Virus record (IMG/VR): IMGVR_UViG_3300048636_000181
Coordinates: 1 to 54,112 of that record
From: a virus
Lineage: Duplodnaviria; Caudoviricetes
Direction: 5' to 3' (one strand)
Length of the DNA: 54,112 nt
Positions 2,657 to 44,195 of this stretch are shown piece after piece. Every line of letters starts with the position of its first letter. The stretch's first letter is position 1. The position numbers and the translations under genes were made by a program. The notes beneath the pieces were generated by a model. That model was given only the letters and a program-made list of their open reading frames with translations, had not been told where the DNA came from and searched no databases.

Positions 2657-2709
2657 CGTTTGGCTCTAGGAGCCGCTGGGAGGGGCCTAGGAGCCCCTTC
2701 TTTCTTTCC

Positions 2710-2751
2710 GGGGCCTCCCCCTCCTTCCGAAGAGAGAAGCCCCTTTCTCGG
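2710..2751 (-). repeat. conserved RNA hairpin, copy A
   Basis: The minus strand reads CCGAGAAA GGGGCTTCTCTCTTC-GGAA-GGAGGGGGAGGCCCC; a second copy is at 42539-42580. Confidence 0.7.
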
Positions 2752-2756
2752 CCGGA

Positions 2757-2912
2757 TTATTGGGGCTCCTCGCAGCGCCCGAGATAGGAAGGGTCCATGC
2801 CGGGGCAATTCGGCCCGAACTCGGACCCTTCCACAGCAAGATACCAGACGAAAGCGAGCACCGCGAGGAAGCCGAGAACCGAAAAAGTCTCTTCGATGGT
2901 CTTTCTTCTCAT
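2757..2912 (-). CDS. small membrane protein (51 aa), absent from the ORF track
   Basis: MRRKTIEETFSVLGFLAVLAFVWYLAVEGSEFGPNCPGMDPSYLGRCEEPQ*; ATGA-coupled to 2909..3127. Confidence 0.6.
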   Translation of the reverse strand: MRRKTIEETFSVLGFLAVLAFVWYLAVEGSEFGPNCPGMDPSYLGRCEEPQ

Positions 2913-3127
2913 GCTGCCACCACCCAAGTGCTCCCGCAGGAATGGTAAGTGCCGTGATTGCCCGGCGCATCGTCGAGGTCAATGAAGACCGTGACCTGAG
3001 TATCCGTCCATCCGGGGCCGAAGCCGAGGATGGTTCCCAGCTTGCCCCAAGTGGTCACTCTCTGGCCGACCTTGAAGCCATCAGCTTCCTTGCGCTTGTC
3101 CATGGCGGGGATGATTTTGCCGTCCAT
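2909..3127 (-). CDS. hypothetical protein
   Basis: AAGGA RBS; TAATG overlap with the upstream gene. Confidence 0.6.
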   Translation of the reverse strand: MDGKIIPAMDKRKEADGFKVGQRVTTWGKLGTILGFGPGWTDTQVTVFIDLDDAPGNHGTYHSCGSTWVVAA

Positions 3128-6654: not shown

Positions 6655-7563
6655 CTAGAAGAGTAGTTGTTGTTTTGCTTTGAAGGGTTGACGCCAATGG
6701 TCATCCCCCATTAGTTTCCCCACTCGGTCGTAAGAAAAGCAATTCAATGCCCAGCGCCCGTCGTGGACATCTCTTACCTGCTCCAAAGTAAGGCCGTAGT
6801 ATGCTAACTTTTCGAGAATGGTGGCCTGCGCTTCAGGGGGCATGGAATTGAAATGTGCCCCCCATTTTCTTATATTAGGGGATCGGGCTGAAATAGAGAT
6901 CGCCCGATTGAACTCAGGAAGCATTATCGAGCCGTTCGCGGCCATTTGGACCCATGAAGACGAGTCGCAAGAATACCATGGGTATTTAGACATTAGCTTT
7001 CGAGACGTAAGGCCAAACCCGTGAACTTTTCGCCGGGCAATTCCGTCTTTATCAGTTAGAACCTTTTCCCATATCTCATCAAGCCATAGTTCAAGTTTAT
7101 TGTTAGGAATAGGCACCATCCCGCCAATCGTAATGTACTCGTAATTGCGAATATAGTACTCACATAGGTCGAGGGGCTCGCCGTAGTGAAAGCAGGGAAG
7201 GACCTCGGCCCCTAGCTTTTCGAGGGTGTTTTGATTATGGAAGGTGCCTTCCGGATCACCGATGGCGTCGAGAACTGACGCCATTTCGATAATGTCCTGA
7301 TGGCCTTTTACGAACTCTGCGTAGGCTTCGATGCTGACTTCGACCCCGAGACTAAACGCCGAGAAGGCGCCCGAGTCAAGAAACACCTTATCCCCAGCGC
7401 GTCGAATCATATCGACGTACCGGCCCTTGTGGATATAATGATATGATTCGAGCTTATGGGTAACCTCGTCTCGCAGAGCCTTCATTTGAGGCGTAAACCT
7501 GCGATAGAGGTTACCGAAGATGCTCAAGTGCGAGGTATAGAGCCCCGCTATATAGAGCCGCAT
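6655..7563 (-). CDS. dpdA: DpdA DNA 7-deazaguanine transglycosylase (TGT-like)
   Basis: 'FLDSGAFS', 'LDAIGD', 'PCFHYGE', 'HGFG' and 'DSSSW' motifs; directly downstream of queC. Confidence 0.85.
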   Translation of the reverse strand: MRLYIAGLYTSHLSIFGNLYRRFTPQMKALRDEVTHKLESYHYIHKGRYVDMIRRAGDKVFLDSGAFSAFSLGVEVSIEAYAEFVKGHQDIIEMASVLDAIGDPEGTFHNQNTLEKLGAEVLPCFHYGEPLDLCEYYIRNYEYITIGGMVPIPNNKLELWLDEIWEKVLTDKDGIARRKVHGFGLTSRKLMSKYPWYSCDSSSWVQMAANGSIMLPEFNRAISISARSPNIRKWGAHFNSMPPEAQATILEKLAYYGLTLEQVRDVHDGRWALNCFSYDRVGKLMGDDHWRQPFKAKQQLLF

Positions 7564-9611: not shown

Positions 9612-10352
9612 TTACTCGAGATTGAGGTATTTGTGGATTTGCAGCTGGATTGTATAGCCATGCTTCATGCAAGACTTAACGGCGATCTCTTGGTTCGCTC
9701 GGTTAATCTCTTCGTCTTTATGGTCGGCCGGCTGAAGGTAGATCGGGCGGTCCCACCACGCCGGAGGACGGGCGAGCATGGGGTGCGCCGAGTGCCCGAG
9801 AGCCTGAAGCGGGAGCCCGTCTAGGGATGCGCCGTCCTCGACGCTGGTCACATATTTATAGCAGCAGGCGCGGGCGGTGATATCGGGGTGCACCTTGCCA
9901 GTTTTCGGGCTGCATACGAGGTAGACGCCCTGCCACGGTCCGACTTGGGTATGGTACTGAAACCCGTCAGCCTGGGGCGGGGGCAGGGTGCCATTCGTTT
10001 CGATCTGAACCCTGTAGCCCAGTTCGTAGAGAAGCTTCAGCAGCGGACCGAGGTTCTGCCTGAAGGGCTCACCGCCCGTGATGACGACAAGGGGCTTGAT
10101 CTCGGTATTCGAAGACCAGGGTTCTACCAAAGTATCGGCGATGATCTGATTGGGGGTCAGGAGAGCCCGAGAGCTAGTGTAGTCCGTATCGCACCACGGG
10201 CATTGCAGATTGCACCCCGCGAGCCGGATGAATACCGCAGGCTGCCCGCAGAAGGGGCCTTCGCCTTGGATCGTGTAGAAAATGGAATGGACGTAGAGCT
10301 TCAAGCCGTCGGTGCGCGAGCGTTTCTCAATCGGCTGTTGGTTCTTTTTCAT
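9612..10352 (-). CDS. queE: 7-carboxy-7-deazaguanine synthase (radical SAM)
   Basis: 'TIQGEG', CxxxCxxC 'CNLQCPWCDT', 'TGGEP', 'IETNG', 'QIHKYL'. Confidence 0.93.
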   Translation of the reverse strand: MKKNQQPIEKRSRTDGLKLYVHSIFYTIQGEGPFCGQPAVFIRLAGCNLQCPWCDTDYTSSRALLTPNQIIADTLVEPWSSNTEIKPLVVITGGEPFRQNLGPLLKLLYELGYRVQIETNGTLPPPQADGFQYHTQVGPWQGVYLVCSPKTGKVHPDITARACCYKYVTSVEDGASLDGLPLQALGHSAHPMLARPPAWWDRPIYLQPADHKDEEINRANQEIAVKSCMKHGYTIQLQIHKYLNLE

Positions 10353-10377: not shown

Positions 10378-10418
10378 TATAGAAACCTCCCCCGCGGCGT
10401 GGAAGCGCGGAGGAGGTT
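10378..10418 (-). terminator. 13-bp stem-loop with weak U-tract upstream of queE
   Basis: Minus strand AACCTCCTCCGCG-9 nt-CGCGGGGGAGGTT followed by TCTATA. Confidence 0.5.
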
Positions 10419-10448
10419 AGGACCGAAGGTCGGGGGCAAGCGAGACGC

Positions 10449-18887: not shown

Positions 18888-19121
18888 CTACCCTCCGTAA
18901 TAGGCGTCGCCAGTGGCGAAGATGTCGGCCCCGGCGCCCTTGAGGACTGCGAGGAACTCCTCGAACTCGACGTCAGCCCAGATCTGATAATCGCTGCCGC
19001 GAACGGCAATGATCGTCTTGCCCCGATGGGAGTTAGCCGAGATGATGTCGGTCAGGCTGATGATATGCTCGCGCCTGTCGCCGTCGCGCGAAGTGCTGGT
19101 GACGTGGACGAAGCCGCTCAT
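18888..19121 (-). CDS. hypothetical protein
   Basis: Start moved to MSGFVHV (GGAGG RBS, ATGA overlap). Confidence 0.6.
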   Translation of the reverse strand: MSGFVHVTSTSRDGDRREHIISLTDIISANSHRGKTIIAVRGSDYQIWADVEFEEFLAVLKGAGADIFATGDAYYGG

Positions 19122-19543
19122 GACAGTTTCACCTCCGGCGATGCGTCCTTCGTCGTGTAGACGTTGGCGAAGATCTTCGCGGCGTCGCCTTCGAGCTTGT
19201 CGACCTGCTTCTTCTCGATCTCGTATTTGACCCGGAGAAGATCGTCGAAGGTGCACGGGACGTCGTTCAGCTTCCGGTATTCCTCACGCGCCGCGGGAAT
19301 GGAAGCCTCGTCGACCGACCGGGTCACCTTGTGGTTGACCTTCAGGGTCCGAAGATCGGGGAGGAGGTAGTTGTTCATCCCCTCCTTGAAGTCGACGCCC
19401 ATGGCTTGCCGGACGCTGTCGCGGATGGCTTTCCGCATCTCCAGTTCTTTGGATTCGAGGGGCTTAAGCTGTTTCTTCAGCTCGGCGATCTTGCCGGCCA
19501 GCTTATCCCACTCGTCGACGTAGTCAGTGAAAGATGTGGTCAT
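19118..19543 (-). CDS. hypothetical coiled-coil protein, first gene of the leftward arm
   Basis: AAGGAG RBS; possible promoter TTGAAG-17-TAGAAA at 19568-19596. Confidence 0.7.
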   Translation of the reverse strand: MTTSFTDYVDEWDKLAGKIAELKKQLKPLESKELEMRKAIRDSVRQAMGVDFKEGMNNYLLPDLRTLKVNHKVTRSVDEASIPAAREEYRKLNDVPCTFDDLLRVKYEIEKKQVDKLEGDAAKIFANVYTTKDASPEVKLS

Positions 19544-19704: not shown

Positions 19705-20028
19705 ATGTCAGAAATAAGAGGCCCGAGGCTTGTGGACATAGTCCGCAGCCTATTGGACAGTCACGGCTATACGAACCGTCGTTGTCATGAAGAGTTCGGG
19801 GTAGGAATAACATGGCTCAGTGACTTTCGCCGAAATGAAGGCCGAGCCCCAAGCGCTCAGACCATGCAGCTCATCTATGAGCAAATAACGGGTCAAGCGC
19901 TAATAAAGGAAGAGGCCCCAACAATCCCCGGAGCGAAAGGGACTGCCGAGGCCTCTAAGGCAGCAAGCCACTCTAATAATAGGCTCCCCTTGAAAGAGGG
20001 TCAAGAGCCAAAAGGAGCACAGCAATGA
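19705..20028 (+). CDS. XRE/Cro-like HTH protein
   Basis: 'TNRRCHEEFGVGITWLSDFRR...PSAQTMQLIYEQITG'; sits at the divergence point. Confidence 0.65.
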   Translation: MSEIRGPRLVDIVRSLLDSHGYTNRRCHEEFGVGITWLSDFRRNEGRAPSAQTMQLIYEQITGQALIKEEAPTIPGAKGTAEASKAASHSNNRLPLKEGQEPKGAQQ

Positions 20029-25789: not shown

Positions 25790-26221
25790 ATGTCCGATCA
25801 AGACCGTGGTTTCTACCACAAGTTCATTGTCCGGCGTGTCGACGAAACTGACGGCCCCGGAAGGAAGCACGAAGGTTGCGAATACTTCGTGCTCGACCTG
25901 ACCCATGATAAGCACGCCCCAGCGGCGCTACGTACCTACGCGGAAAGCTGTCAGGATGAGTATCCCATGCTCGCAGCTGATCTTCGGGAAAAGGTCGGCG
26001 GCTGGCGGCCCCCGGCAATGCAGGATCGCGAGGACGGCCTCGAAGTGCTGGCCTTCCACCGAGGCAAGTGGCGTCACGTCCGGTGGAACGATGAACATAA
26101 GGGTTGGCATCTTCACTGGGGAGGGCCGTTCCTGAGCATCCAGCATGACGAAGAGATCCACTTCGCCCCTCTCCCTCCGAAGCCCGAGGATGCCGAAGGT
26201 TTCTACGACTGGAAGAGCTGA
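25790..26221 (+). CDS. hypothetical two-module phage protein
   Basis: TAGGAG RBS; common phage module 'YFVLDLTHDKHAPAALRTYA..C...YP.LAADL'. Confidence 0.65.
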   Translation: MSDQDRGFYHKFIVRRVDETDGPGRKHEGCEYFVLDLTHDKHAPAALRTYAESCQDEYPMLAADLREKVGGWRPPAMQDREDGLEVLAFHRGKWRHVRWNDEHKGWHLHWGGPFLSIQHDEEIHFAPLPPKPEDAEGFYDWKS

Positions 26222-26421
26222 TGGAATACGCTTTTCTGATATACGGCGCGGGATTGATCGTCATCTACCTAAATGAGACAGGTGCCGCGCGTAATGACCA
26301 AGAGGCTTTCGAAGCGATTCTGACCGCGATTCTCTGGCCGCTGTTTTTCGTCATCTTGATCTGCGTTGGGATTGGTCTGGCGGTTGAGTGGGGCGTCCGG
26401 AAGGTGCTGCGTCGTGGCTAA
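26221..26421 (+). CDS. small membrane protein
   Basis: Two hydrophobic segments; 'AILWP' motif. Confidence 0.55.
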   Translation: MEYAFLIYGAGLIVIYLNETGAARNDQEAFEAILTAILWPLFFVILICVGIGLAVEWGVRKVLRRG

Positions 26422-26442
26422 GTCGTTCAAAGGCGGTGGCCG

Positions 26443-26830
26443 CATGAAGATCGAAATTCGCGGCAAGGTTTATCATAGCGCTGATGAGGCGGCGCTCGTT
26501 CTGGGGGTTTCGCGTAATACAATTTACTCGGCTCTTAGCAAAGGTACTCTCGATACAGTCGGGCTTGGGCCGGGCAGATACGACCGTAGGAAGCCCGTGA
26601 CCTATTTCGGGGTAACATTCGACTGCCTCGCAACTGCTGCTGCAGAGCTGGGCTACTCCTGCAAGCAGTCGGTCAATGATGCTCGACGGCTTAGACCACA
26701 TCTTTTGCGCTTGCGAGTTATGCGATACGTCGCTAAGCTAGAACAGCAGCGCTTCAAGGATGAAGAGCTCGAAGACATCAAACCCGTGGGCGGAGGTATC
26801 CACCATGTCAAGAAAAGAAATTCTGATTGA
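26443..26830 (+). CDS. tandem HTH (NUMOD1-like) DNA-binding protein
   Basis: 'GKVYHSADEAALVLGVSRNTI' and 'GVTFDCLATAAAELG'; the start could be GTG 26414. Confidence 0.6.
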
Positions 26831-30420: not shown

Positions 30421-30879
30421 ATGGACTATCTTATTGTTGAGTGTTCAAACACTCTTGAGTTCTCGACATGGGGAGAGGACTTCGGGGTGTGGATTCCGAT
30501 CGCCAAGGAAAGACAAGAAGGTGGGCGGGTGGTGAAAAAGGCCGCCATGCCCGGCTACGCCTTCATTCCAAAGCCTGCGGTGATTCGATGCATGGGAGCG
30601 GCCCCCGCGAAGTTTCGGGTTCGCGTACTATGGGGGTTTCTCTCGGCCAGTCTTGTGCCCGATACCGAGCTGGCGGTCATGCAGCAGATTCTAAATGACG
30701 AGTTCATCCCAGCGAAGGAGACGAAAGCTCCGTCTCCTAAAGCGATCGGGGACTGGATTACCATCAAAGCTGGTCCTTTCAAAGATTGCACCGGGCGTGT
30801 CGTATCTATTAAGCCCGGGTACTGTCGAGTCCTTCTAGGGAAGCGATATGTTTCTATTGTTTCCGAATTACTAAGTTGA
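30421..30879 (+). CDS. NusG/RfaH-family transcription antitermination factor
   Basis: NGN-like 'AAMPGYAFI' and 'VPDTEL'; KOW motif 'IGDWITIKAGPFKDCTGRVVSI'. Confidence 0.8.
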   Translation: MDYLIVECSNTLEFSTWGEDFGVWIPIAKERQEGGRVVKKAAMPGYAFIPKPAVIRCMGAAPAKFRVRVLWGFLSASLVPDTELAVMQQILNDEFIPAKETKAPSPKAIGDWITIKAGPFKDCTGRVVSIKPGYCRVLLGKRYVSIVSELLS

Positions 30880-31012
30880 TTTAAAGATTTTTCTTGAATC
30901 ATCATTCGGGCTATGGTTCATTCATAGGTGAGGCCCCACTCGAGCAACATATAAGGGACAGCCGGAAAAGCTACTTGTTGGCGAAGGGGTTAGACTGTTC
31001 GGGGAGCCCCAC

Positions 31013-34966: not shown

Positions 34967-35434
34967 ATGACCGCAACACCTTGGATCGCTTACGGCCATG
35001 CCGTTGAACAAATCTGGAAAGGCGGCATCGACGTTGAGAATGACTCGTTCCGTATGGTCCTTGTCGGCTCCGGGTATACCCCGAACCAGCTGACCGACGA
35101 CGCATGGTCCGATGTCTCGGCCAACGAGATCGCGAACGGCAACGGCTACGCCACTCACGGTAAGGCAGTCGATCTGGCTGTCACGCGGGCGGGGCTGGTC
35201 ATAAAGGTCGATACCGCAGATCAGACGTGGGCGGATTCGACTTTCACGGTCAAATACGCCGTCATCGTACGCGACGCCGACGGGAACGGCGCCCTCGCCG
35301 CGGGCGACATTCCGCTCTGCTACTGCCAACTTCTGACCGAAGCTCCGCAGACCCTTTCGCCGAGCAACGGTCCGTTGACCGTCACCATCGACGCTGATGG
35401 CGTCATGGGCGAAACGATCGCCGCCGCTCCGTAA
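34967..35434 (+). CDS. virion structural protein (putative head fibre module)
   Basis: AAGGAG RBS; beta-rich; 'DVSANEIANGNGYATHG'. Confidence 0.6.
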   Translation: MTATPWIAYGHAVEQIWKGGIDVENDSFRMVLVGSGYTPNQLTDDAWSDVSANEIANGNGYATHGKAVDLAVTRAGLVIKVDTADQTWADSTFTVKYAVIVRDADGNGALAAGDIPLCYCQLLTEAPQTLSPSNGPLTVTIDADGVMGETIAAAP

Positions 35435-37200
35435 TGAGCACCGAAGGTCGCACCCTTGTCTCGTCCAGTCAGGCGCCAGCGACGGGGATGCACTCCGCCG
35501 CTCTGCTGCCGGGGTTGGGTGCGAATGCTCAATTTACCGTGTTCTTTGGGTTCAAGGACCCCGGTGGAAACAGCAACAATACGATGTGGGCCGACGACAA
35601 TGGCGGGTGTCAGGTCTGGATCAACTCGTCGAACGGGCGGCTCTATGCCAGATATGCCGGGTCGAGTAGCGGGCCTTATATTCAATACACCGTCGGCGAA
35701 TGGTGCTTTGCAGCGATTCAAATGGGCCTCGACATCAGCGGCGTGAATGACGTCGTGATGGAGGGGTACGCGGTTGGTGGTATTGGCTACGAGACCGGCG
35801 AGGGTAATACGTCGAGCAGCGGCGGACCTCGGATCGAATCGACCAGCCGCCATTACGCCCTTGGTGATGATGCTGGCGAGGCATTCACAGACGACGGTAC
35901 CGAGGTCAAGGCATTCGGCCTTACGCTTCTTGAGGGGCTTTGGACGCTCGACCAGCTTGGATTTAACACGGCGACAGGTCAGGCTAAGAACTTCGACCCC
36001 GACGCCGAAGCCGCAATCATCTATACCTTCCGGGGTAAAGTATCTCCCGGAAACGATGATTCGGGCAACGGGAACCACTTCGTCATCGAGAATGGCGGTG
36101 TGGTACTTGATGAGGCCGATCTCCCTCCCGGAGTCAGCCTCCCATCGGTCGGGGGCGAGGGGGCAGATGCTGCTCCCGCTGCCGCCTCGTCCTCGATCGC
36201 TGGTTATGCGCCCTCGGCGCGCGCCGGAGCCTCAGTCACGCCTGTCGCCGCTCTCTCGGCGCTGAGCGGGCTGCCGCCTGTAGTATCCGCAGGCGAATCC
36301 GCACAGGCAGCCCCTACCCCGGCGCTCTCCGTGCTGACGGGGTTGCCGCCTACGGTATCCGCTGGCAAGTCCGCACTGGCCGCGCCTGCCGCCGCTCTCT
36401 CCGCACTAGCCGGGATTTTGGTACAATCTTCGGCGGGGGCGACCGGCGTTCCGACGCCTGCGCTCAGCGCAATTCAAGGTCATGGGATCGTCGCCTCGGT
36501 CGGCGCTCTCGCTTCAATTCCGGTGGGATCATTGCTGCTGGCAGGCGCCGCGGTTGAAATCTCTTCCGGTTCGATGTCGGCTCCCTCTGCTGGTGTGGGG
36601 ACGCTGACAGGGTACGCCCCCGGTGTGATCTCCTCGGTCTCGTCCTCGCCGGGGGCTGCCCTACTTTCCCTTCAAGGCTACGCGCCCCTAGTCTCGGTGA
36701 CTGTCGGGATCGTGGCTTACCCCGCCTCGGCTATTTCTATACTGGCTGGTGCTGCCCCCGAAGCCTCGGCGGGGGCCGCGGCTGCTCCTTCCTTCGGGCA
36801 GAGCGAAGTGTCGGGGTATGTTTCCGGCGCAAGTTCTGGGGCCGCGGTTTCCCCGTCCGTGGCGCTGCTCACCGGGGAAGGTTTAGCTCCGCTTGTGACC
36901 GCCGCGGTGGGTATTGTCGCTGCTCCCGGCCCCTCGGGATCGACAATTGAGGGGGAAATGCCTTCGATTAGCTCCGGGTCGGTCGTTTTTACTGGGTATG
37001 CGAGTTCGCTTATTCAGGGCTTCGCTCCTTCGGTCGTTTCTCGTATTGCGGATACTCCAGATTGGCGAATGGTGGCTATCCCGGCTGAGGACCGCATGGT
37101 CGGGATTCCGGACGAGCCGCGTAGCGTGGCGGTTGCAAATGAAGATAGAGCTGTCGCGGTAGCCTATGAGGACCGCACGGTCGCGGTGGAGGCTGCATAA
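35434..37200 (+). CDS. putative head fibre: lectin-like N-terminal domain plus Ala/Ser/Gly/Pro repeat shaft
   Basis: About 20-22-aa repeats 'PxxALSxLxGxxPxVSAG'; five 9-aa C-terminal repeats 'RxVAVxxED'. Confidence 0.55.
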   Translation: MSTEGRTLVSSSQAPATGMHSAALLPGLGANAQFTVFFGFKDPGGNSNNTMWADDNGGCQVWINSSNGRLYARYAGSSSGPYIQYTVGEWCFAAIQMGLDISGVNDVVMEGYAVGGIGYETGEGNTSSSGGPRIESTSRHYALGDDAGEAFTDDGTEVKAFGLTLLEGLWTLDQLGFNTATGQAKNFDPDAEAAIIYTFRGKVSPGNDDSGNGNHFVIENGGVVLDEADLPPGVSLPSVGGEGADAAPAAASSSIAGYAPSARAGASVTPVAALSALSGLPPVVSAGESAQAAPTPALSVLTGLPPTVSAGKSALAAPAAALSALAGILVQSSAGATGVPTPALSAIQGHGIVASVGALASIPVGSLLLAGAAVEISSGSMSAPSAGVGTLTGYAPGVISSVSSSPGAALLSLQGYAPLVSVTVGIVAYPASAISILAGAAPEASAGAAAAPSFGQSEVSGYVSGASSGAAVSPSVALLTGEGLAPLVTAAVGIVAAPGPSGSTIEGEMPSISSGSVVFTGYASSLIQGFAPSVVSRIADTPDWRMVAIPAEDRMVGIPDEPRSVAVANEDRAVAVAYEDRTVAVEAA

Positions 37201-39174: not shown

Positions 39175-40125
39175 ATGAATAAGCCCCTTCGCATGATGGA
39201 TGCTCAGGTTGCGCTTGCCTATGCGGTAAGCCAAGCGTCCCGCATCCACCCGACGGTGTACCAGAAGAAGTACGCGCCGATTCGCTACCGCGGTCTGGTT
39301 CCCGTCGATACCACCGGTCCCGAGTGGATCAAATCCATCACCTACTTCTCGATGGATCAGGTCGGTCAGGCCGAATGGATGAACGCGGCGGCCGATGATG
39401 TCCCGCATGTCGAGCTGCTCTCGGACCGGACGCAAACCGAGGTCCACATGGCCGCCATCGGCTATGGCTGGAACATCGAAGAGCTGGCACAGGCTCAGAT
39501 GCTCGGCGTCGACCTGAGCAACCGCAAGGCCATGGCCGCGCGGCGTGCTTCCGAAGAAAAGATCGACGCGGTCGCCTTCGCCGGCGCCCCGGAGAAGGGC
39601 CTGTACGGTATCATCAACCAGCCGAACGTCACGGCCACCGATGCTGCCGCGACCGGTTCGGGGTCGGCGACCGAATGGGACACCAAGACCCCCGATGCCA
39701 TGCTGGGCGACGTGAACGGGATTCTCACCGGTCAGTTCATCACGACGCAGCAGGCAGAAATGGCCGACACGCTGCTTCTCCCCTACACCCAGATGCACTA
39801 CATCGGCACCAAGCGTATCTCGGAATACTCCGAGAAGACGGTGCTCGATTGGATTCGGACGAACAACGTCTATACGATGGAGACGGGGCAGCCCCTCACC
39901 ATCCGCGGACTGCGTGAACTCGAAGGTCAGGGTGACGGCGGGACCGACCGGATGGTCGCCTACCGGAACGATGTGGAAGTTCTGCGGCTGAACATGCCGA
40001 TGCCCTTCCGCTTCTTCCCTGTCTGGCAGGCCGGCCCGTTCCGCTACGAGGTGCCCGGCGCCTTCCGTATCGGCGGCGTCGATGTCTCGCTCCCGCAGGC
40101 CATGCGGTACCTCGACGGGATCTGA
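39175..40125 (+). CDS. major capsid protein (DUF2184, HK97 fold)
   Basis: 'IGYGWNIEEL', 'GLYGIINQPNV', 'DRMVAY', 'MRYLDGI'. Confidence 0.9.
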   Translation: MNKPLRMMDAQVALAYAVSQASRIHPTVYQKKYAPIRYRGLVPVDTTGPEWIKSITYFSMDQVGQAEWMNAAADDVPHVELLSDRTQTEVHMAAIGYGWNIEELAQAQMLGVDLSNRKAMAARRASEEKIDAVAFAGAPEKGLYGIINQPNVTATDAAATGSGSATEWDTKTPDAMLGDVNGILTGQFITTQQAEMADTLLLPYTQMHYIGTKRISEYSEKTVLDWIRTNNVYTMETGQPLTIRGLRELEGQGDGGTDRMVAYRNDVEVLRLNMPMPFRFFPVWQAGPFRYEVPGAFRIGGVDVSLPQAMRYLDGI

Positions 40126-40165: not shown

Positions 40166-40190
40166 ACGTCATTCAATGGGAGTAGCCGTC

Positions 40191-40667
40191 ATGCAGAAGG
40201 CAAAGGGCACCTTCACCAACCATTTCACCGGGGGAATCGGGGTAATCGACGCCGAGATCAACCGGACCCGAGTTCTGCAGAAAGGGCAGAGCTTCAAGGG
40301 CACCATCCTGCTCACGAAGCCGACCGGCGCTCGTCTGGAATCGGGGAAGCTTTCCGCCTCGAAAGATACCGCAGTTATCGAGGACGAGGCGGACGAGGAA
40401 GAACCGAAGAGCGAGTCGCCGCCTGCCCCCGGTAAGGTCATCCCGGCCCCGCCGCCTCCGCCTCCGGCGCCGCCTGCCCCCGAGCCGACCGATGAGGAGA
40501 ACGCCCGTAAGGAAGTTCTCCGTAATCTGGCAAGTTCGATGGATGAAGGCGACTTCACCACGGACGGCCGGCCGAACCTCGACGCCCTGAACGCGAAAGC
40601 CGGAACCGAAGTTCCGCACTTCACGGTCGAAGAGCGGGACAAGCTCTGGAAAGAGCTGTCGAAATAA
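40191..40667 (+). CDS. hypothetical protein with Pro-rich linker
   Basis: Follows the major capsid gene; C-terminal 'DFTTDGRPNLDALN...ERDKLW' module. Confidence 0.65.
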   Translation: MQKAKGTFTNHFTGGIGVIDAEINRTRVLQKGQSFKGTILLTKPTGARLESGKLSASKDTAVIEDEADEEEPKSESPPAPGKVIPAPPPPPPAPPAPEPTDEENARKEVLRNLASSMDEGDFTTDGRPNLDALNAKAGTEVPHFTVEERDKLWKELSK

Positions 40668-41486: not shown

Positions 41487-42521
41487 GTGGCTGTTAAGAA
41501 AGACACCCGTAGCATGATCGAGCGCTTGACCTCGCCGTACCCTTCGGCGCTGGCTCAAGCGTTTTTGCGGGCTGTCGATAACATTCGTAGCGAGGCCGTT
41601 CTTAAGCAAATTGAACAAGCGATCCTCGACGGAGACGGTGCCAAGCTAGGCCGAATCCTTGAGTTCTCAGATTCGGAGACTGCGATTCTCGGTGAGCAAG
41701 TGCAACGCGCCTTCTCGGCCGGGGCTGAGTTCGAGTCAGCTAAAGTACCGGTCGCGACATTTAAGTTCAATGGGATCAACCCGCGAGCAGTAAATGCCGT
41801 TGCGAGAACCGCGGCCCAACTCGTGACAAGAATCAATGAAGGTCAGCGCGACGCCGTTGTCGAAGTAATGCGCCAAGGAATGATTGCGAATCAGAACCCT
41901 CGGCAGGTCGCTCTCGATATTGTCGGCAGAGTAAATGCCGCTACCGGACGCCGCTCAGGGGGTCTGATCGGTCTAAACGGCCCTCAGATTCGGGCTTCAT
42001 ATGACATGCGTCGCGCCCTGAAAGAAGGCGACCTTACCGCCTATAAAGCGAAGGGTCTTCGAGACAAGCGTTTCGATCGTATGGTCGAGAAAGCAGTCGC
42101 AGCTGGTAAGCCATTGCCCGTCGAAAAGCAAATACAGATCGTTGCCCGGTATCGGTCTAAGCTACTCAAGCTTCGGGGAGACACGATTGGTCGCGAGGCT
42201 ATCGGTCACCTGAATGCCGGCCGGCAAGAGGCCATCGAGCAGGTCATCGATCGCGGACTTGCCGCAGAGCAAGACGTCGATTTCATTTGGAACTCTTCAG
42301 GCGGCCCCCGTACCCGCGACACCCACGCTGCGATGGATGGGCAAAAGCGGAAGCGGGACGAAGTCTTCGTCAGTCCAAGTGGGGCGCGGCTCAAAGCGCC
42401 ACATGACACCACTCACGGTGCTGGGCCGGAAGAGACGATCAACTGTCGCTGCTGGATGGAAACTCGGATTGATTTCATTGCGGCGCGGCTTCGCGCTCGG
42501 AGAGAAGCGGAACGGCTCTGA
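41487..42521 (+). CDS. minor head protein (Mu gpF/SPP1 gp7-like)
   Basis: 'W.SSG..RTRDTH..MDGQ', 'P.ETINCRC'. Confidence 0.8.
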   Translation: MAVKKDTRSMIERLTSPYPSALAQAFLRAVDNIRSEAVLKQIEQAILDGDGAKLGRILEFSDSETAILGEQVQRAFSAGAEFESAKVPVATFKFNGINPRAVNAVARTAAQLVTRINEGQRDAVVEVMRQGMIANQNPRQVALDIVGRVNAATGRRSGGLIGLNGPQIRASYDMRRALKEGDLTAYKAKGLRDKRFDRMVEKAVAAGKPLPVEKQIQIVARYRSKLLKLRGDTIGREAIGHLNAGRQEAIEQVIDRGLAAEQDVDFIWNSSGGPRTRDTHAAMDGQKRKRDEVFVSPSGARLKAPHDTTHGAGPEETINCRCWMETRIDFIAARLRARREAERL

Positions 42522-42538
42522 GAGGCCCGAAAATCTCC

Positions 42539-42580
42539 CCGAGAAAGGGGCTCCTCTTTCTTTCGGGAGGGGGAGGCCCC
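42539..42580 (+). repeat. conserved RNA hairpin, copy B
   Basis: CCGAGAAA GGGGCTCCTCTTTCT-TTCG-GGAGGGGGAGGCCCC. Confidence 0.7.
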
Positions 42581-42628
42581 ATAAAGGAGAGAAGCCCCTG
42601 AGAGGGCCGATTTTAGGGGCTATGGACC

Positions 42629-43057
42629 ATGGCGACTAAAACCTTCGAAGCCGACCTCGCAAGGTTCAGCGACCTTGCCATCGAAGACATCATGGCCTGT
42701 ATCAAGGCATCGACGCAGGATGTTCTAAGCGATGCTCAGACGCCAGTGGATAAAGGCGGTAACCTCCCGGTCGATACCGGGTACCTTCGAAACAGTCTTA
42801 TAACCGAACTCGTTGGTGGCACCTCCTTTCTTGGGGCCGCTTCTTACACAGCGGTACTCGCGGGGTGGCAGCCGGGGCAAGAGCTACAGTCCGGGTGGAT
42901 TGCTGAGTACGCCTTGCGCATTGAGTTCGGATTCCGCGGGGTCGATTCCAAGGGCCGGAAGTATAATCAGAAGCCGCGGTATTATCTCCGCCAAGCGGTT
43001 TCAAAATGGAATAAGCACATGCGGAAGAACGCAACCTTGCTGAGCAGGACGACATGA
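42629..43057 (+). CDS. HK97 gp10-like tail completion protein
   Basis: 'PVDTGYLRNS', 'YALRIEFG'. Confidence 0.8.
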   Translation: MATKTFEADLARFSDLAIEDIMACIKASTQDVLSDAQTPVDKGGNLPVDTGYLRNSLITELVGGTSFLGAASYTAVLAGWQPGQELQSGWIAEYALRIEFGFRGVDSKGRKYNQKPRYYLRQAVSKWNKHMRKNATLLSRTT

Positions 43058-43464
43058 GCACCGCAGCTATCTACGCAGGCGTCAGCGCCCTGATCCGGGA
43101 TAACTACCAGACGGCAGATTTCGGGCTTCCGACTGGCGAGCAGATTTCTGTAAACTGGACAAACGAGGCAGGGGATGAAGGACGATACCGGTTCGAGGTT
43201 CAAGACGGATTTTCGCAAGGCTCTCCGGTCGACCTTTCTGGTGCGTCAGATGAAATGGTTTACGTCCAAGTCGACTGTGTCGTCCCGGCGGGTGACTACT
43301 CGGCACGGGCGCGAGCGATGATGAACTGGCTTCAGGAGCTATTCTTCGCTGGGCGCCGCATCGCCGGCGGCACGGTGGCCGCAAAACCTTTCCCCGGTCC
43401 TCCGGACAATAACCAGTCCGAGTACTGGATTCCGGTAACCATAACAGTTCGTTCGGTGACATAA
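43054..43464 (+). CDS. tail terminator protein
   Basis: Position and size; 'WIPVTI' C-terminus. Confidence 0.6.
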   Translation: MSTAAIYAGVSALIRDNYQTADFGLPTGEQISVNWTNEAGDEGRYRFEVQDGFSQGSPVDLSGASDEMVYVQVDCVVPAGDYSARARAMMNWLQELFFAGRRIAGGTVAAKPFPGPPDNNQSEYWIPVTITVRSVT

Positions 43465-43476
43465 AGGAGTCCCTAA

Positions 43477-43707
43477 ATGACCGACGCAGCTAAGTCCAAA
43501 GACGTGAAGGTTCGCCCCCTCACTGTCGGCAACAAATCGCACCCCTACATTATCGTGAAGGGCGCGAAACCGGCGAAGGGCACGAACTATGAGTTCGATG
43601 CCGATAACGGCGTGACCTATACCGGCAAGGTCACGGACTCGACTGAAGCCAGCGATGGCACCATGATCGAGTTCGCGGACGGCCTCAAGGTCGTTCCGGC
43701 GAAGTAA
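43477..43707 (+). CDS. small hypothetical (structural?) protein
   Basis: AAGGAG RBS; beta-rich. Confidence 0.6.
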   Translation: MTDAAKSKDVKVRPLTVGNKSHPYIIVKGAKPAKGTNYEFDADNGVTYTGKVTDSTEASDGTMIEFADGLKVVPAK

Positions 43708-43733
43708 CCCGTCAACACAAAGGAGGCTTTCAC

Positions 43734-44195
43734 ATGGCCGACGGAGATACCTACATCGACCTTGGGCACAAGGTCTCTTTCGTGCAGGATACACCTGCAA
43801 CCTTCGACGAGACCGGGTTCTCGGCGCTGACCTACGTCCAGTTGAAGGGCGTTCTCAACGTCCCTGAAGATGGCGACAGCGCCGAGGACGTCAGCGAGCC
43901 GACTCTCGAAGATGGTCGCGTCGAGCACTTCTACGGGGCGCTCGACGGCGGTTCTATCGATGTGCCTTACAAGTTCATCGAAGGCGACGCCGGGCAAGCG
44001 CTCGTGAACATGGGCGTCGCGCGGGACTACAACGCTCCGTGGTCGTTCAAGTTCGAAGACCCGGACGGCACGGTCACCTACAAGTACGGGCGCCTCGGTC
44101 CGACTCGCCGCCGGGAACGCAGCCCGAACGCCTTCAAGGCTTTCATCCTCCCGATGGTCTTCAACAAGGCCGCGGTTGTGGTGGAGCCGGTCTGA
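43734..44195 (+). CDS. major tail tube protein
   Basis: AGGAGG RBS; 'PATFDETGFSALTY', 'G.LDGGS', 'DAGQAL'. Confidence 0.8.
   Translation: MADGDTYIDLGHKVSFVQDTPATFDETGFSALTYVQLKGVLNVPEDGDSAEDVSEPTLEDGRVEHFYGALDGGSIDVPYKFIEGDAGQALVNMGVARDYNAPWSFKFEDPDGTVTYKYGRLGPTRRRERSPNAFKAFILPMVFNKAAVVVEPV

Follow-up and report, generated by a model that had tools for sequence, protein, structure and literature searches.

Why does a phage genome carry two related copies of a hairpin, in two operons that run against each other, and in which molecule would that hairpin act? The window analysed here is a whole stretch of viral DNA of 54,112 bp, a complete IMG/VR virus record with terminal repeats (a 22-nt end overlap by blastn) and 58% G+C. 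An earlier note, made from its letters, had singled out a pair of intergenic repeats and read them as a functional cis-acting RNA. We examined where the two copies lie, how they fold and diverge, whether they have homologues, and which role fits them best.

Position of the two copies in the phage genome

The genes of the window form two opposed sets. A leftward replication operon, running from about 19543 to 2757, encodes a helicase, a Cas4-domain exonuclease, a queuine-tRNA-ribosyltransferase-like protein, a processivity factor, and a family A DNA polymerase, and is closed by three small genes. The rightward set opens at 19705 with a primase, continues through a NusG/UpxY-like gene, terminase, portal, major capsid, MuF-like, Neck1-like, and tail genes, and passes the end of the record to 2624. 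The late and replication operons converge on an intrinsic terminator at 2628–2656. No phage RNA polymerase was seen among the 21 of ~75 ORFs that were scanned. The nearest relatives of the structural module are prophages in Mesorhizobium, Aureimonas, and other Alphaproteobacteria, with 63–73% identity in the major capsid protein. The queuine tRNA-ribosyltransferase-like gene (6655–7563, minus strand) is of the DpdA type (PHROG 887, E 4e-64), which suggests that the phage DNA may carry 7-deazaguanine modification. The features on which the analysis turns are as follows.

2628–2656, both strands: canonical bidirectional intrinsic terminator, 12-bp stem with A/U runs on both sides
2662–2697, minus strand: two small GC hairpins (2697–2682 and 2674–2662)
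2698–2709, minus strand: purine-rich spacer 3' of the copy A hairpin
2704–2768, minus strand: copy A repeat unit, 65 nt ungapped (blastn extension to 2697)
2710–2743, minus strand: copy A hairpin (5' arm 2743–2729, GGAA loop 2728–2725, 3' arm 2724–2710)
2744–2751, minus strand: conserved CCGAGAAA, copy A
2757–2927, minus strand: final gene of the leftward operon, for a small protein with a hydrophobic segment (by eye); homologue in the relative G006
30421–30879, plus strand: gene for a distant NusG/UpxY-like protein (PHROG 6386 at 4.8e-6)
39175–40125, plus strand: major capsid gene
41487–42521, plus strand: MuF-like head morphogenesis gene, 5' of copy B
42522–42586, plus strand: copy B repeat unit, beginning directly after the TGA stop (42519–42521) of the MuF-like gene
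42539–42546, plus strand: conserved CCGAGAAA, copy B
42547–42580, plus strand: copy B hairpin (14 of 15 pairs in the UUCG register; C.A at 42553/42574)
42581–42628, plus strand: purine-rich spacer (42581–42593), then a GC-rich stretch (42594–42620)
42629–43057, plus strand: tail completion/Neck1-like gene, 3' of copy B

Copy A lies in the 3' UTR of the replication operon, upstream of the canonical terminator ~55 nt further on, and no leftward genes lie beyond that terminator. The stop codon of the final gene falls within the repeat, whose first 12 nt coincide with three sense codons and the TAA stop (2757–2759) at the end of that gene, and the stem begins 13 nt past this stop. The sequence 3' of the hairpin can be drawn in two ways, either with the two small GC hairpins or with 2697–2689 paired to 2770–2762 in a predicted 9-bp outer helix around the copy A hairpin. 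Read on the plus strand, the complement of the purine-rich spacer would supply a terminator-like site with its U-rich tail. Antisense terminator-like sites beside both copies were considered as a signal and rejected, their counts being those of chance (7 vs 7.7 expected; 10 vs 5.0, sd 2.4).

Copy B occupies the 107-nt gap between the MuF-like and Neck1-like genes, ~11.5 kb into the late operon, with its stem beginning 25 nt past the TGA stop. The GC-rich stretch at 42594–42620 is predicted to form either a hairpin of its own over a likely AGGGG ribosome site or the 3' strand of an outer helix with 42513–42526; this helix, of 7+2+3 bp and including the stop codon, is rivalled by the local hairpin. 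Among 11 relatives with MuF/Neck1 synteny, the two genes abut or overlap in 7, and the other 4 carry inserts of 0.3–0.8 kb, so the copy B spacer is lineage-specific and the junction accepts insertions. Two of these four inserts are ORFs, one of them with sub-threshold HNH/His-Me endonuclease matches. These extra ORFs, at 9817–10563 of L012 and 6093–6800 of L014, sit exactly at the junction and are likely to be free-standing genes of the homing-endonuclease type, to judge from the HNH and His-Me endonuclease matches (both sub-threshold) in L014 and a C-terminal HTH in L012.

Among the sequencing runs listed, the copy B region is contained in 19 DNA metagenomes from hydrothermal vents and marine plankton and in no RNA run; the four of these that were aligned over 41900–43200 were letter-identical and so offered no variants for covariation. 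In two independent metagenome runs, contigs stop at 42566–42569, within the purine arm of copy B, one of them with a poly-C loose end, which suggests that the hairpin or its G-run troubles sequencing or assembly.

Sequence, fold, and divergence of the repeat

A degenerate pattern of the 42-nt unit described in the earlier note has exactly two matches in the genome, at 2710–2751 (minus strand) and 42539–42580 (plus strand), just where it had placed them. The likeness of the copies exceeds that unit: they align without gaps over 65 nt at 75% identity (2704–2768 vs 42522–42586), which makes them the longest inverted repeat of the genome, and the pair tops the list of a blastn self-comparison (75 nt, 77%, E 2.6e-6). 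Both share one layout, with a 5' flank ending in CCGAGAAA, a 15-nt pyrimidine-rich arm, a 4-base loop, a 15-nt purine-rich arm, and a purine-rich tail. Invariant between them are CCGAGAAA, the 8 nt 5' of the hairpin, and the purine 3' arm, whose exact 15-mer is present in the genome only at copies A and B; the next-best matches to it have 3 mismatches and number 7, against a chance expectation of 4.2.

A 32-nt unit occurs three times at 72-nt spacing in 36239–36414 (plus strand), inside an ORF without a PHROG match (35434–37200), and its copies point to a probable repeated protein segment of 24 aa. The octamer GGGGGAGG occurs 10 times, with 3.7 expected and none of 100 shuffles reaching 10; copies A and B each contain it in their hairpins, as does a third sense hairpin of the pyrimidine/purine kind at 10383–10426. 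Six of its sites are sense and four antisense, and some are likely ribosome sites.

As RNA of the sense strand, copy A forms all 15 possible pairs, including 4 G.U, around a GGAA loop closed by C-G, at −27.2 kcal/mol. Copy B forms 14 of 15 pairs in the tetraloop register, with the C.A position open and UUCG closed by U.G rather than C-G (−20.1 kcal/mol), and its predicted MFE structure, at −22.8 kcal/mol, shifts the register so as to give a UUC triloop and one bulge. The pair counts given in the earlier note are thus those of the tetraloop register, and its description of swapped stable tetraloops survives for the letters (GGAA and UUCG) but not for the loop closure, which makes a canonical GNRA loop in copy A only. 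Its claim of a one-strand fold was borne out: against the sense values of −27.2 and −22.8 kcal/mol, the antisense RNA reaches MFEs of only −12.2 (A) and −13.0 kcal/mol (B), with 11 and 10 of 15 pairs. From the orientation of the ORFs alone, we infer that both sites are probably transcribed in the sense direction.

Fold energy alone is unconvincing, because such composition folds easily. Among 200 dinucleotide shuffles of the 66-nt context, 18 (A) and 10 (B) fold as well or better (z −1.35 and −1.78). Ranked for stability among non-overlapping 44-nt windows on either strand (genome mean −10.2, sd 4.1), A comes 4th and B 29th. The signal is the repeat with its structure retained, not energy alone.

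How the structure was retained can be read from the differences. The 34-nt hairpin differs between A and B at 8 positions: the 5' arm has four C/U swaps, the loop differs at each of its four bases, and the 15 positions of the 3' arm are unchanged. Three of the swaps lie opposite G and remain paired, and the fourth, opposite A, breaks its pair, which agrees with the earlier description of swaps mostly opposite G that keep the pairing. We simulated 8 random substitutions in the 34 nt, with 5000 trials per setting. Starting from A, at least 14 pairs survived in 0.7% (equal rates) to 5.2% (transition-biased) of trials; starting from B, at least 15 pairs survived in 0–0.4%. This is moderate evidence that the stem was maintained despite divergence. 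The pattern is not strict covariation, because the 3' arm is invariant and no pair is altered on both sides. A design of one pyrimidine and one purine arm absorbs C/U drift through G.U pairs, so that the stem persists while one arm changes.

The orientation of the copies relative to transcription is, by reasoning from the gene map, inseparable from their orientation relative to a central origin, and since the genes may be co-oriented with replication, forks that leave an origin between the two hairpins would have both on their lagging-strand template. They might then act as single-stranded DNA, for instance as a priming or recombination signal, in a phage that encodes its own primase, helicase, and polymerase. 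The DNA folds speak against this: with DNA parameters, copy A reaches −8.4 kcal/mol, no better than shuffles (160 of 200 at least as good), in copy B the hairpin is not the MFE structure, and the 4–5 G.T pairs are poor in DNA. We hold an action as single-stranded DNA to be highly improbable, and we take the element for a cis-acting RNA more readily than for a DNA site.

Neither hairpin is followed by a U-run; both tails are purine-rich, and a consensus terminator scan lists neither hairpin on its own sense strand, in keeping with the earlier statement that this is not a standard terminator. The proximity to stop codons raises the question of recoding, in which the hairpin would stimulate stop read-through or bypass and extend the upstream proteins. 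The frame of the upstream ORF is open through the hairpin in both copies, with the element in the same relative frame, and the bypassing of T4 gene 60, as described in PMC3014915, pairs a stop codon with a tetraloop hairpin. Such a role is nonetheless far-fetched here: the stops (TAA vs TGA) and the spacings to the stem (13 vs 25 nt) differ, the apical substitutions are non-synonymous, copy A has no downstream ORF to join, and purine/pyrimidine tracts are stop-poor anyway, a shared frame having a 1 in 3 chance.

Both hairpins could be part of larger structures. An outer helix is possible around either copy, giving a predicted irregular extended stem-loop of ~80–97 nt, with outer strands of non-homologous letters between A and B; the fold z of the region is −3.2 around A, terminator included, and −1.4 around B. 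In a survey of 14 gaps (13 co-directional gaps and the 3'-terminal gap with copy A), in which a hairpin was sought in 40 nt, 8 held a sense hairpin of −20 kcal/mol or below, and none of these 8 was followed by a U-run. Those after the major capsid gene and after 40176–40667 were among them. With 8 of 14 gaps, hairpins without U-tracts are a general habit of this phage, and A and B are the sole sequence-related pair among them. The most stable hairpin of the genome (25725–25769, −31.5 kcal/mol), in the 264-nt gap before 25790–26221, is almost perfectly palindromic and can fold on either strand. The second most stable, a 17-bp hairpin at 19911–19954 (−29.5 kcal/mol), folds on the minus strand only, inside a plus-strand ORF (19705–20028) beside the divergent early region, and could be an antisense RNA or an operator-like element.

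Homologue searches and the NusG-like protein

A covariance model built from the two copies, R1, scored them at 97.5 (A) and 96.4 bits (B) on the window; the next match, of 15.4 bits at 19912–19972, lies in an ORF and was judged chance. At E ≤ 1, R1 found nothing in 10 related phage or prophage-bearing records, and over 43 loci (434 kb) its best E was 1.1. In 151 Hyphomicrobiales genomes, 5 gave a single weak match each (E 0.008–0.025), where ~4 were expected by chance; one match that was inspected is antisense to the neighbouring genes. Two degenerate patterns had no matches in a viral contig collection, nor had the exact pattern in genome contigs with one genome per species, and blastn of 42000–44000 against a phage collection returned no match. 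A pattern scan of metagenome contigs gave 4 matches, rejected as unrelated: one falls within coding sequence, and the other three represent a single AT-rich locus. Rfam 15 had no match in the whole window at the gathering threshold, and permissive scans of both sites reached at best 19–21 bits, against gathering thresholds of 47–70, with families that differ between the copies.

Of the outcomes that the earlier note had named as counting against its reading, two bear on these searches. One, a lack of conservation or covariation in relatives, is what we found in the relatives searched, none of which gave a match. This absence is not decisive, because the relatives are distant, with at most 71% amino acid identity in the DNA polymerase and at most 41% in MuF. 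The replication-module relatives G006–G008 have DNA polymerases of 58–71% identity, and in G006 the homologue of the small terminal gene is followed by an unrelated 9-bp hairpin and then extra genes, which is not homology. The other outcome, a match to a REP-like repeat of the host, did not appear in the one-genome-per-species scan or in the 151 Hyphomicrobiales, among which the true host may not be included. The best self-repeat of G006, of 47 nt (26408–26454, plus strand, and 19091–19136, minus strand), is not a hairpin; it is a duplicated 5' UTR/ribosome-site region before two genes in opposite operons.

An element private to this phage in the searches made could be a passenger or remnant of mobile or duplicated DNA that does little or nothing: a short spacer element copied from one intergenic site to another or deposited by a mobile insertion, its hairpin retained because it is young or harmless. 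The copy B gap is at an insertion hot spot (7 of 11 relatives abutting or overlapping, 4 of 11 with inserts of 0.3–0.8 kb), and the copy B core stands between imperfect direct repeats (13/17; 42517–42533 and 42596–42612). The upstream ORF of copy A ends within the repeat, which supplies its last codons. In L014, the post-MuF sequence before the HNH-like ORF has a 17-nt motif in common with the 5' flank of copy A, a weak lead, since the motif was defined after the match had been seen and its unbiased score is E 5.2. Against a mere passenger stand the uneven, stem-keeping divergence (loop 4/4, 3' arm 0/15, 14–15 pairs), rare under random substitution, and the placement of both copies in sense orientation shortly past a stop codon. 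Neither a transposase nor terminal inverted repeats nor extra copies were found; there were no multicopy relatives in the 151 Hyphomicrobiales genomes, and the exact pattern scan of the genome collection had 0 matches. We consider a passenger origin rather unlikely, if still to be reckoned with.

The earlier note had suggested that the hairpin may be the RNA target that recruits the phage's NusG paralogue, as LoaP is recruited to the dfn leader hairpin. LoaP does require a small UNCG-type hairpin, which PMC12691694 places in the 5' leader, ahead of a NusA-dependent terminator. The resemblance consists in a small RNA hairpin, a genome with a specialised NusG-like protein, and UNCG letters (UUCG) at the tip of one copy, B; CCGAGAAA in the flanks and the 3' arm are also fully conserved between the copies, as a protein site might be. 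The 30421–30879 protein matches the NusG/UpxY class only distantly, at 27 bits against a cut-off of 100 for NF033644 and with KOW below cut-off, and no evidence linking it to the hairpins was found. Neither copy is in a leader: copy A is in a 3' UTR at the operon end, and copy B in a mid-operon gap ~11.5 kb downstream of the leader at 30880–31012. The loops are wholly different (GGAA vs UUCG), and the UUCG of copy B is closed by U.G, with a triloop as MFE. Nor do gene and element co-occur in relatives, since G006–G008 keep the NusG-like gene beside terS (28–37% identity), and R1 has no match at E ≤ 1 in the five records searched that include them. The true leader holds another conserved motif, 16 nt at 30910–30925 (plus strand) in the 133-nt gap between the NusG-like gene and terS, of which 14 nt are identical in the leader of G007. 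This motif may serve as a late promoter or as a site at which the NusG-like factor loads, and 30880–31012 is a better candidate for leader signals than the hairpins. The NusG link of the earlier note is therefore very unlikely, and its cis-acting RNA retains the RNA-only sense fold and the stem-keeping divergence in its favour. A hairpin should not be taken for the target of a NusG paralogue on nearness alone.

A broader role in transcription is also conceivable, as a hairpin-dependent pause or weak factor-dependent stop that lacks a U-tract, attenuates transcription at operon boundaries, and is overridden by the NusG-like antiterminator, or as an antitermination RNA of the put/EAR type. Phage HK022 has two put sites, which two sense copies in opposed operons recall. 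The hairpin would be long and GC-rich in nascent RNA at two expression boundaries, and a distant NusG/UpxY-like protein is encoded immediately 5' of the late operon. According to PMC10325885, internal terminators occur in operons under processive antitermination, and the length of a stem is important if it is to resist antitermination. On the other side, the U-tract is absent, copy A has a canonical terminator within ~55 nt and no leftward genes beyond it for read-through to serve, and control of the replication operon by the late antiterminator is not obvious. Described antiterminator RNAs are among the families of Rfam, which gave no match, and the relatives with a NusG-like gene lack the element. 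A transcription signal thus seems unlikely.

A proposed structural role in the mRNA and its known counterparts

A structural role in the mRNA is favoured because of the sense-only RNA fold, the sites after stop codons, the lack of a U-tract, and the similar hairpins in other gaps of the genome. As the likeliest of the roles weighed here, if short of probable, the hairpin may be a barrier to mRNA decay or a processing hairpin of the sense strand, a role that we infer. The copies would be sense RNA stem-loops just past the stop codons of the replication operon end (A) and the last head gene (B). There, the 15-bp hairpin would block 3'-to-5' exonucleases; alternatively, the hairpin and the predicted outer helix would together form a double-strand-specific processing site. 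In either case, the mRNA segment before it would acquire a stable 3' end and survive longer than the sequence downstream. Protection of decay intermediates by 3' secondary structure is treated as established bacterial mRNA biology in PMC3997798. Both copies have the character of this class, a sense-only stem-loop 3' of a cistron and beyond the reach of a terminating ribosome (13 and 25 nt). A strong stop at copy B is unlikely, because essential tail genes lie downstream.

Several findings count against a decay barrier. There are two copies only, with no two-sided compensatory change and no homologue found, and the foldability is partly compositional (z −1.35 and −1.78). Three further hairpins follow copy A, including the terminator, which would already protect the 3' end. 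At copy B, the stoichiometric case for stabilising the preceding segment is weak, because the upstream gene encodes a minor head protein. For the processing variant, the outer helices consist of non-homologous letters, and that of B competes with another fold.

Both hairpins might instead belong to a phage-private cis-regulatory RNA module, with the base of the stem-loop at the stop codon and its folding coupled to translation termination, and with a phage or host factor that reads CCGAGAAA, the purine arm, and the purine-rich tail and sets expression boundaries in the replication and late operons. The factor could be the NusG/UpxY-like protein, acting mid-operon as with EAR and put RNAs, or else an RNA chaperone or a nuclease. 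So elaborate a module is quite improbable. The element is a sequence-orphan example of an already known kind, without a homologue in the collections searched.

If the decay-barrier or processing role is true, this is one more phage that shapes segmental mRNA stability by hairpins without U-tracts. The phage is uncultured, is known from marine and vent samples, and has its relatives among prophages of Alphaproteobacteria, a group for which transcript-level data are few. In practice, little would be gained beyond a compact stabiliser part that is specific to one strand.

Set beside known systems, the element shares with an intrinsic (Rho-independent) terminator a GC-rich nascent-RNA hairpin at the end of a transcription unit, in the case of copy A, and differs in having no U-tract after the stem, the true U-run terminator lying ~55 nt beyond. 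REP and BIME elements are multicopy host intergenic palindromes that occur at the 3' ends of genes and can stabilise upstream mRNA. They resemble the present element as imperfect palindromes of ~35 nt at 3' gene ends, sometimes over stop codons. Here, however, there are two copies, no matches in the one-genome-per-species collection, and single weak matches in 5 of 151 Hyphomicrobiales genomes, about the number expected by chance.

The RNase III sites of phage T7 occur as several sequence-related intergenic copies, with about two turns of irregular double helix and an internal loop, at which cleavage leaves a protective 3' hairpin. The present copies are likewise related and intergenic, with a predicted upper stem, internal loop, and lower stem, and on cleavage the upstream RNA would keep a protective hairpin at its 3' end. 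Their predicted lower helices differ in being of unrelated letters, and that of B competes with another fold.

The 3' stabiliser stem-loops include the intercistronic stable-tetraloop hairpins of phage T4, the REP sequences of the E. coli mal operon, and the puf hairpin of Rhodobacter. From these, the present element departs in its pyrimidine and purine arms with 4–5 G.U pairs, in a copy B UUCG without C-G closure, and in consisting of two copies in one phage, whose effect on decay is a proposal. It agrees with them in being a stable sense stem-loop without a U-tract that follows a stop codon, whether between cistrons or in a 3' UTR; in its tips, one GNRA and one with the letters UUCG; and in its sites, at which upstream and downstream expression may need to differ.
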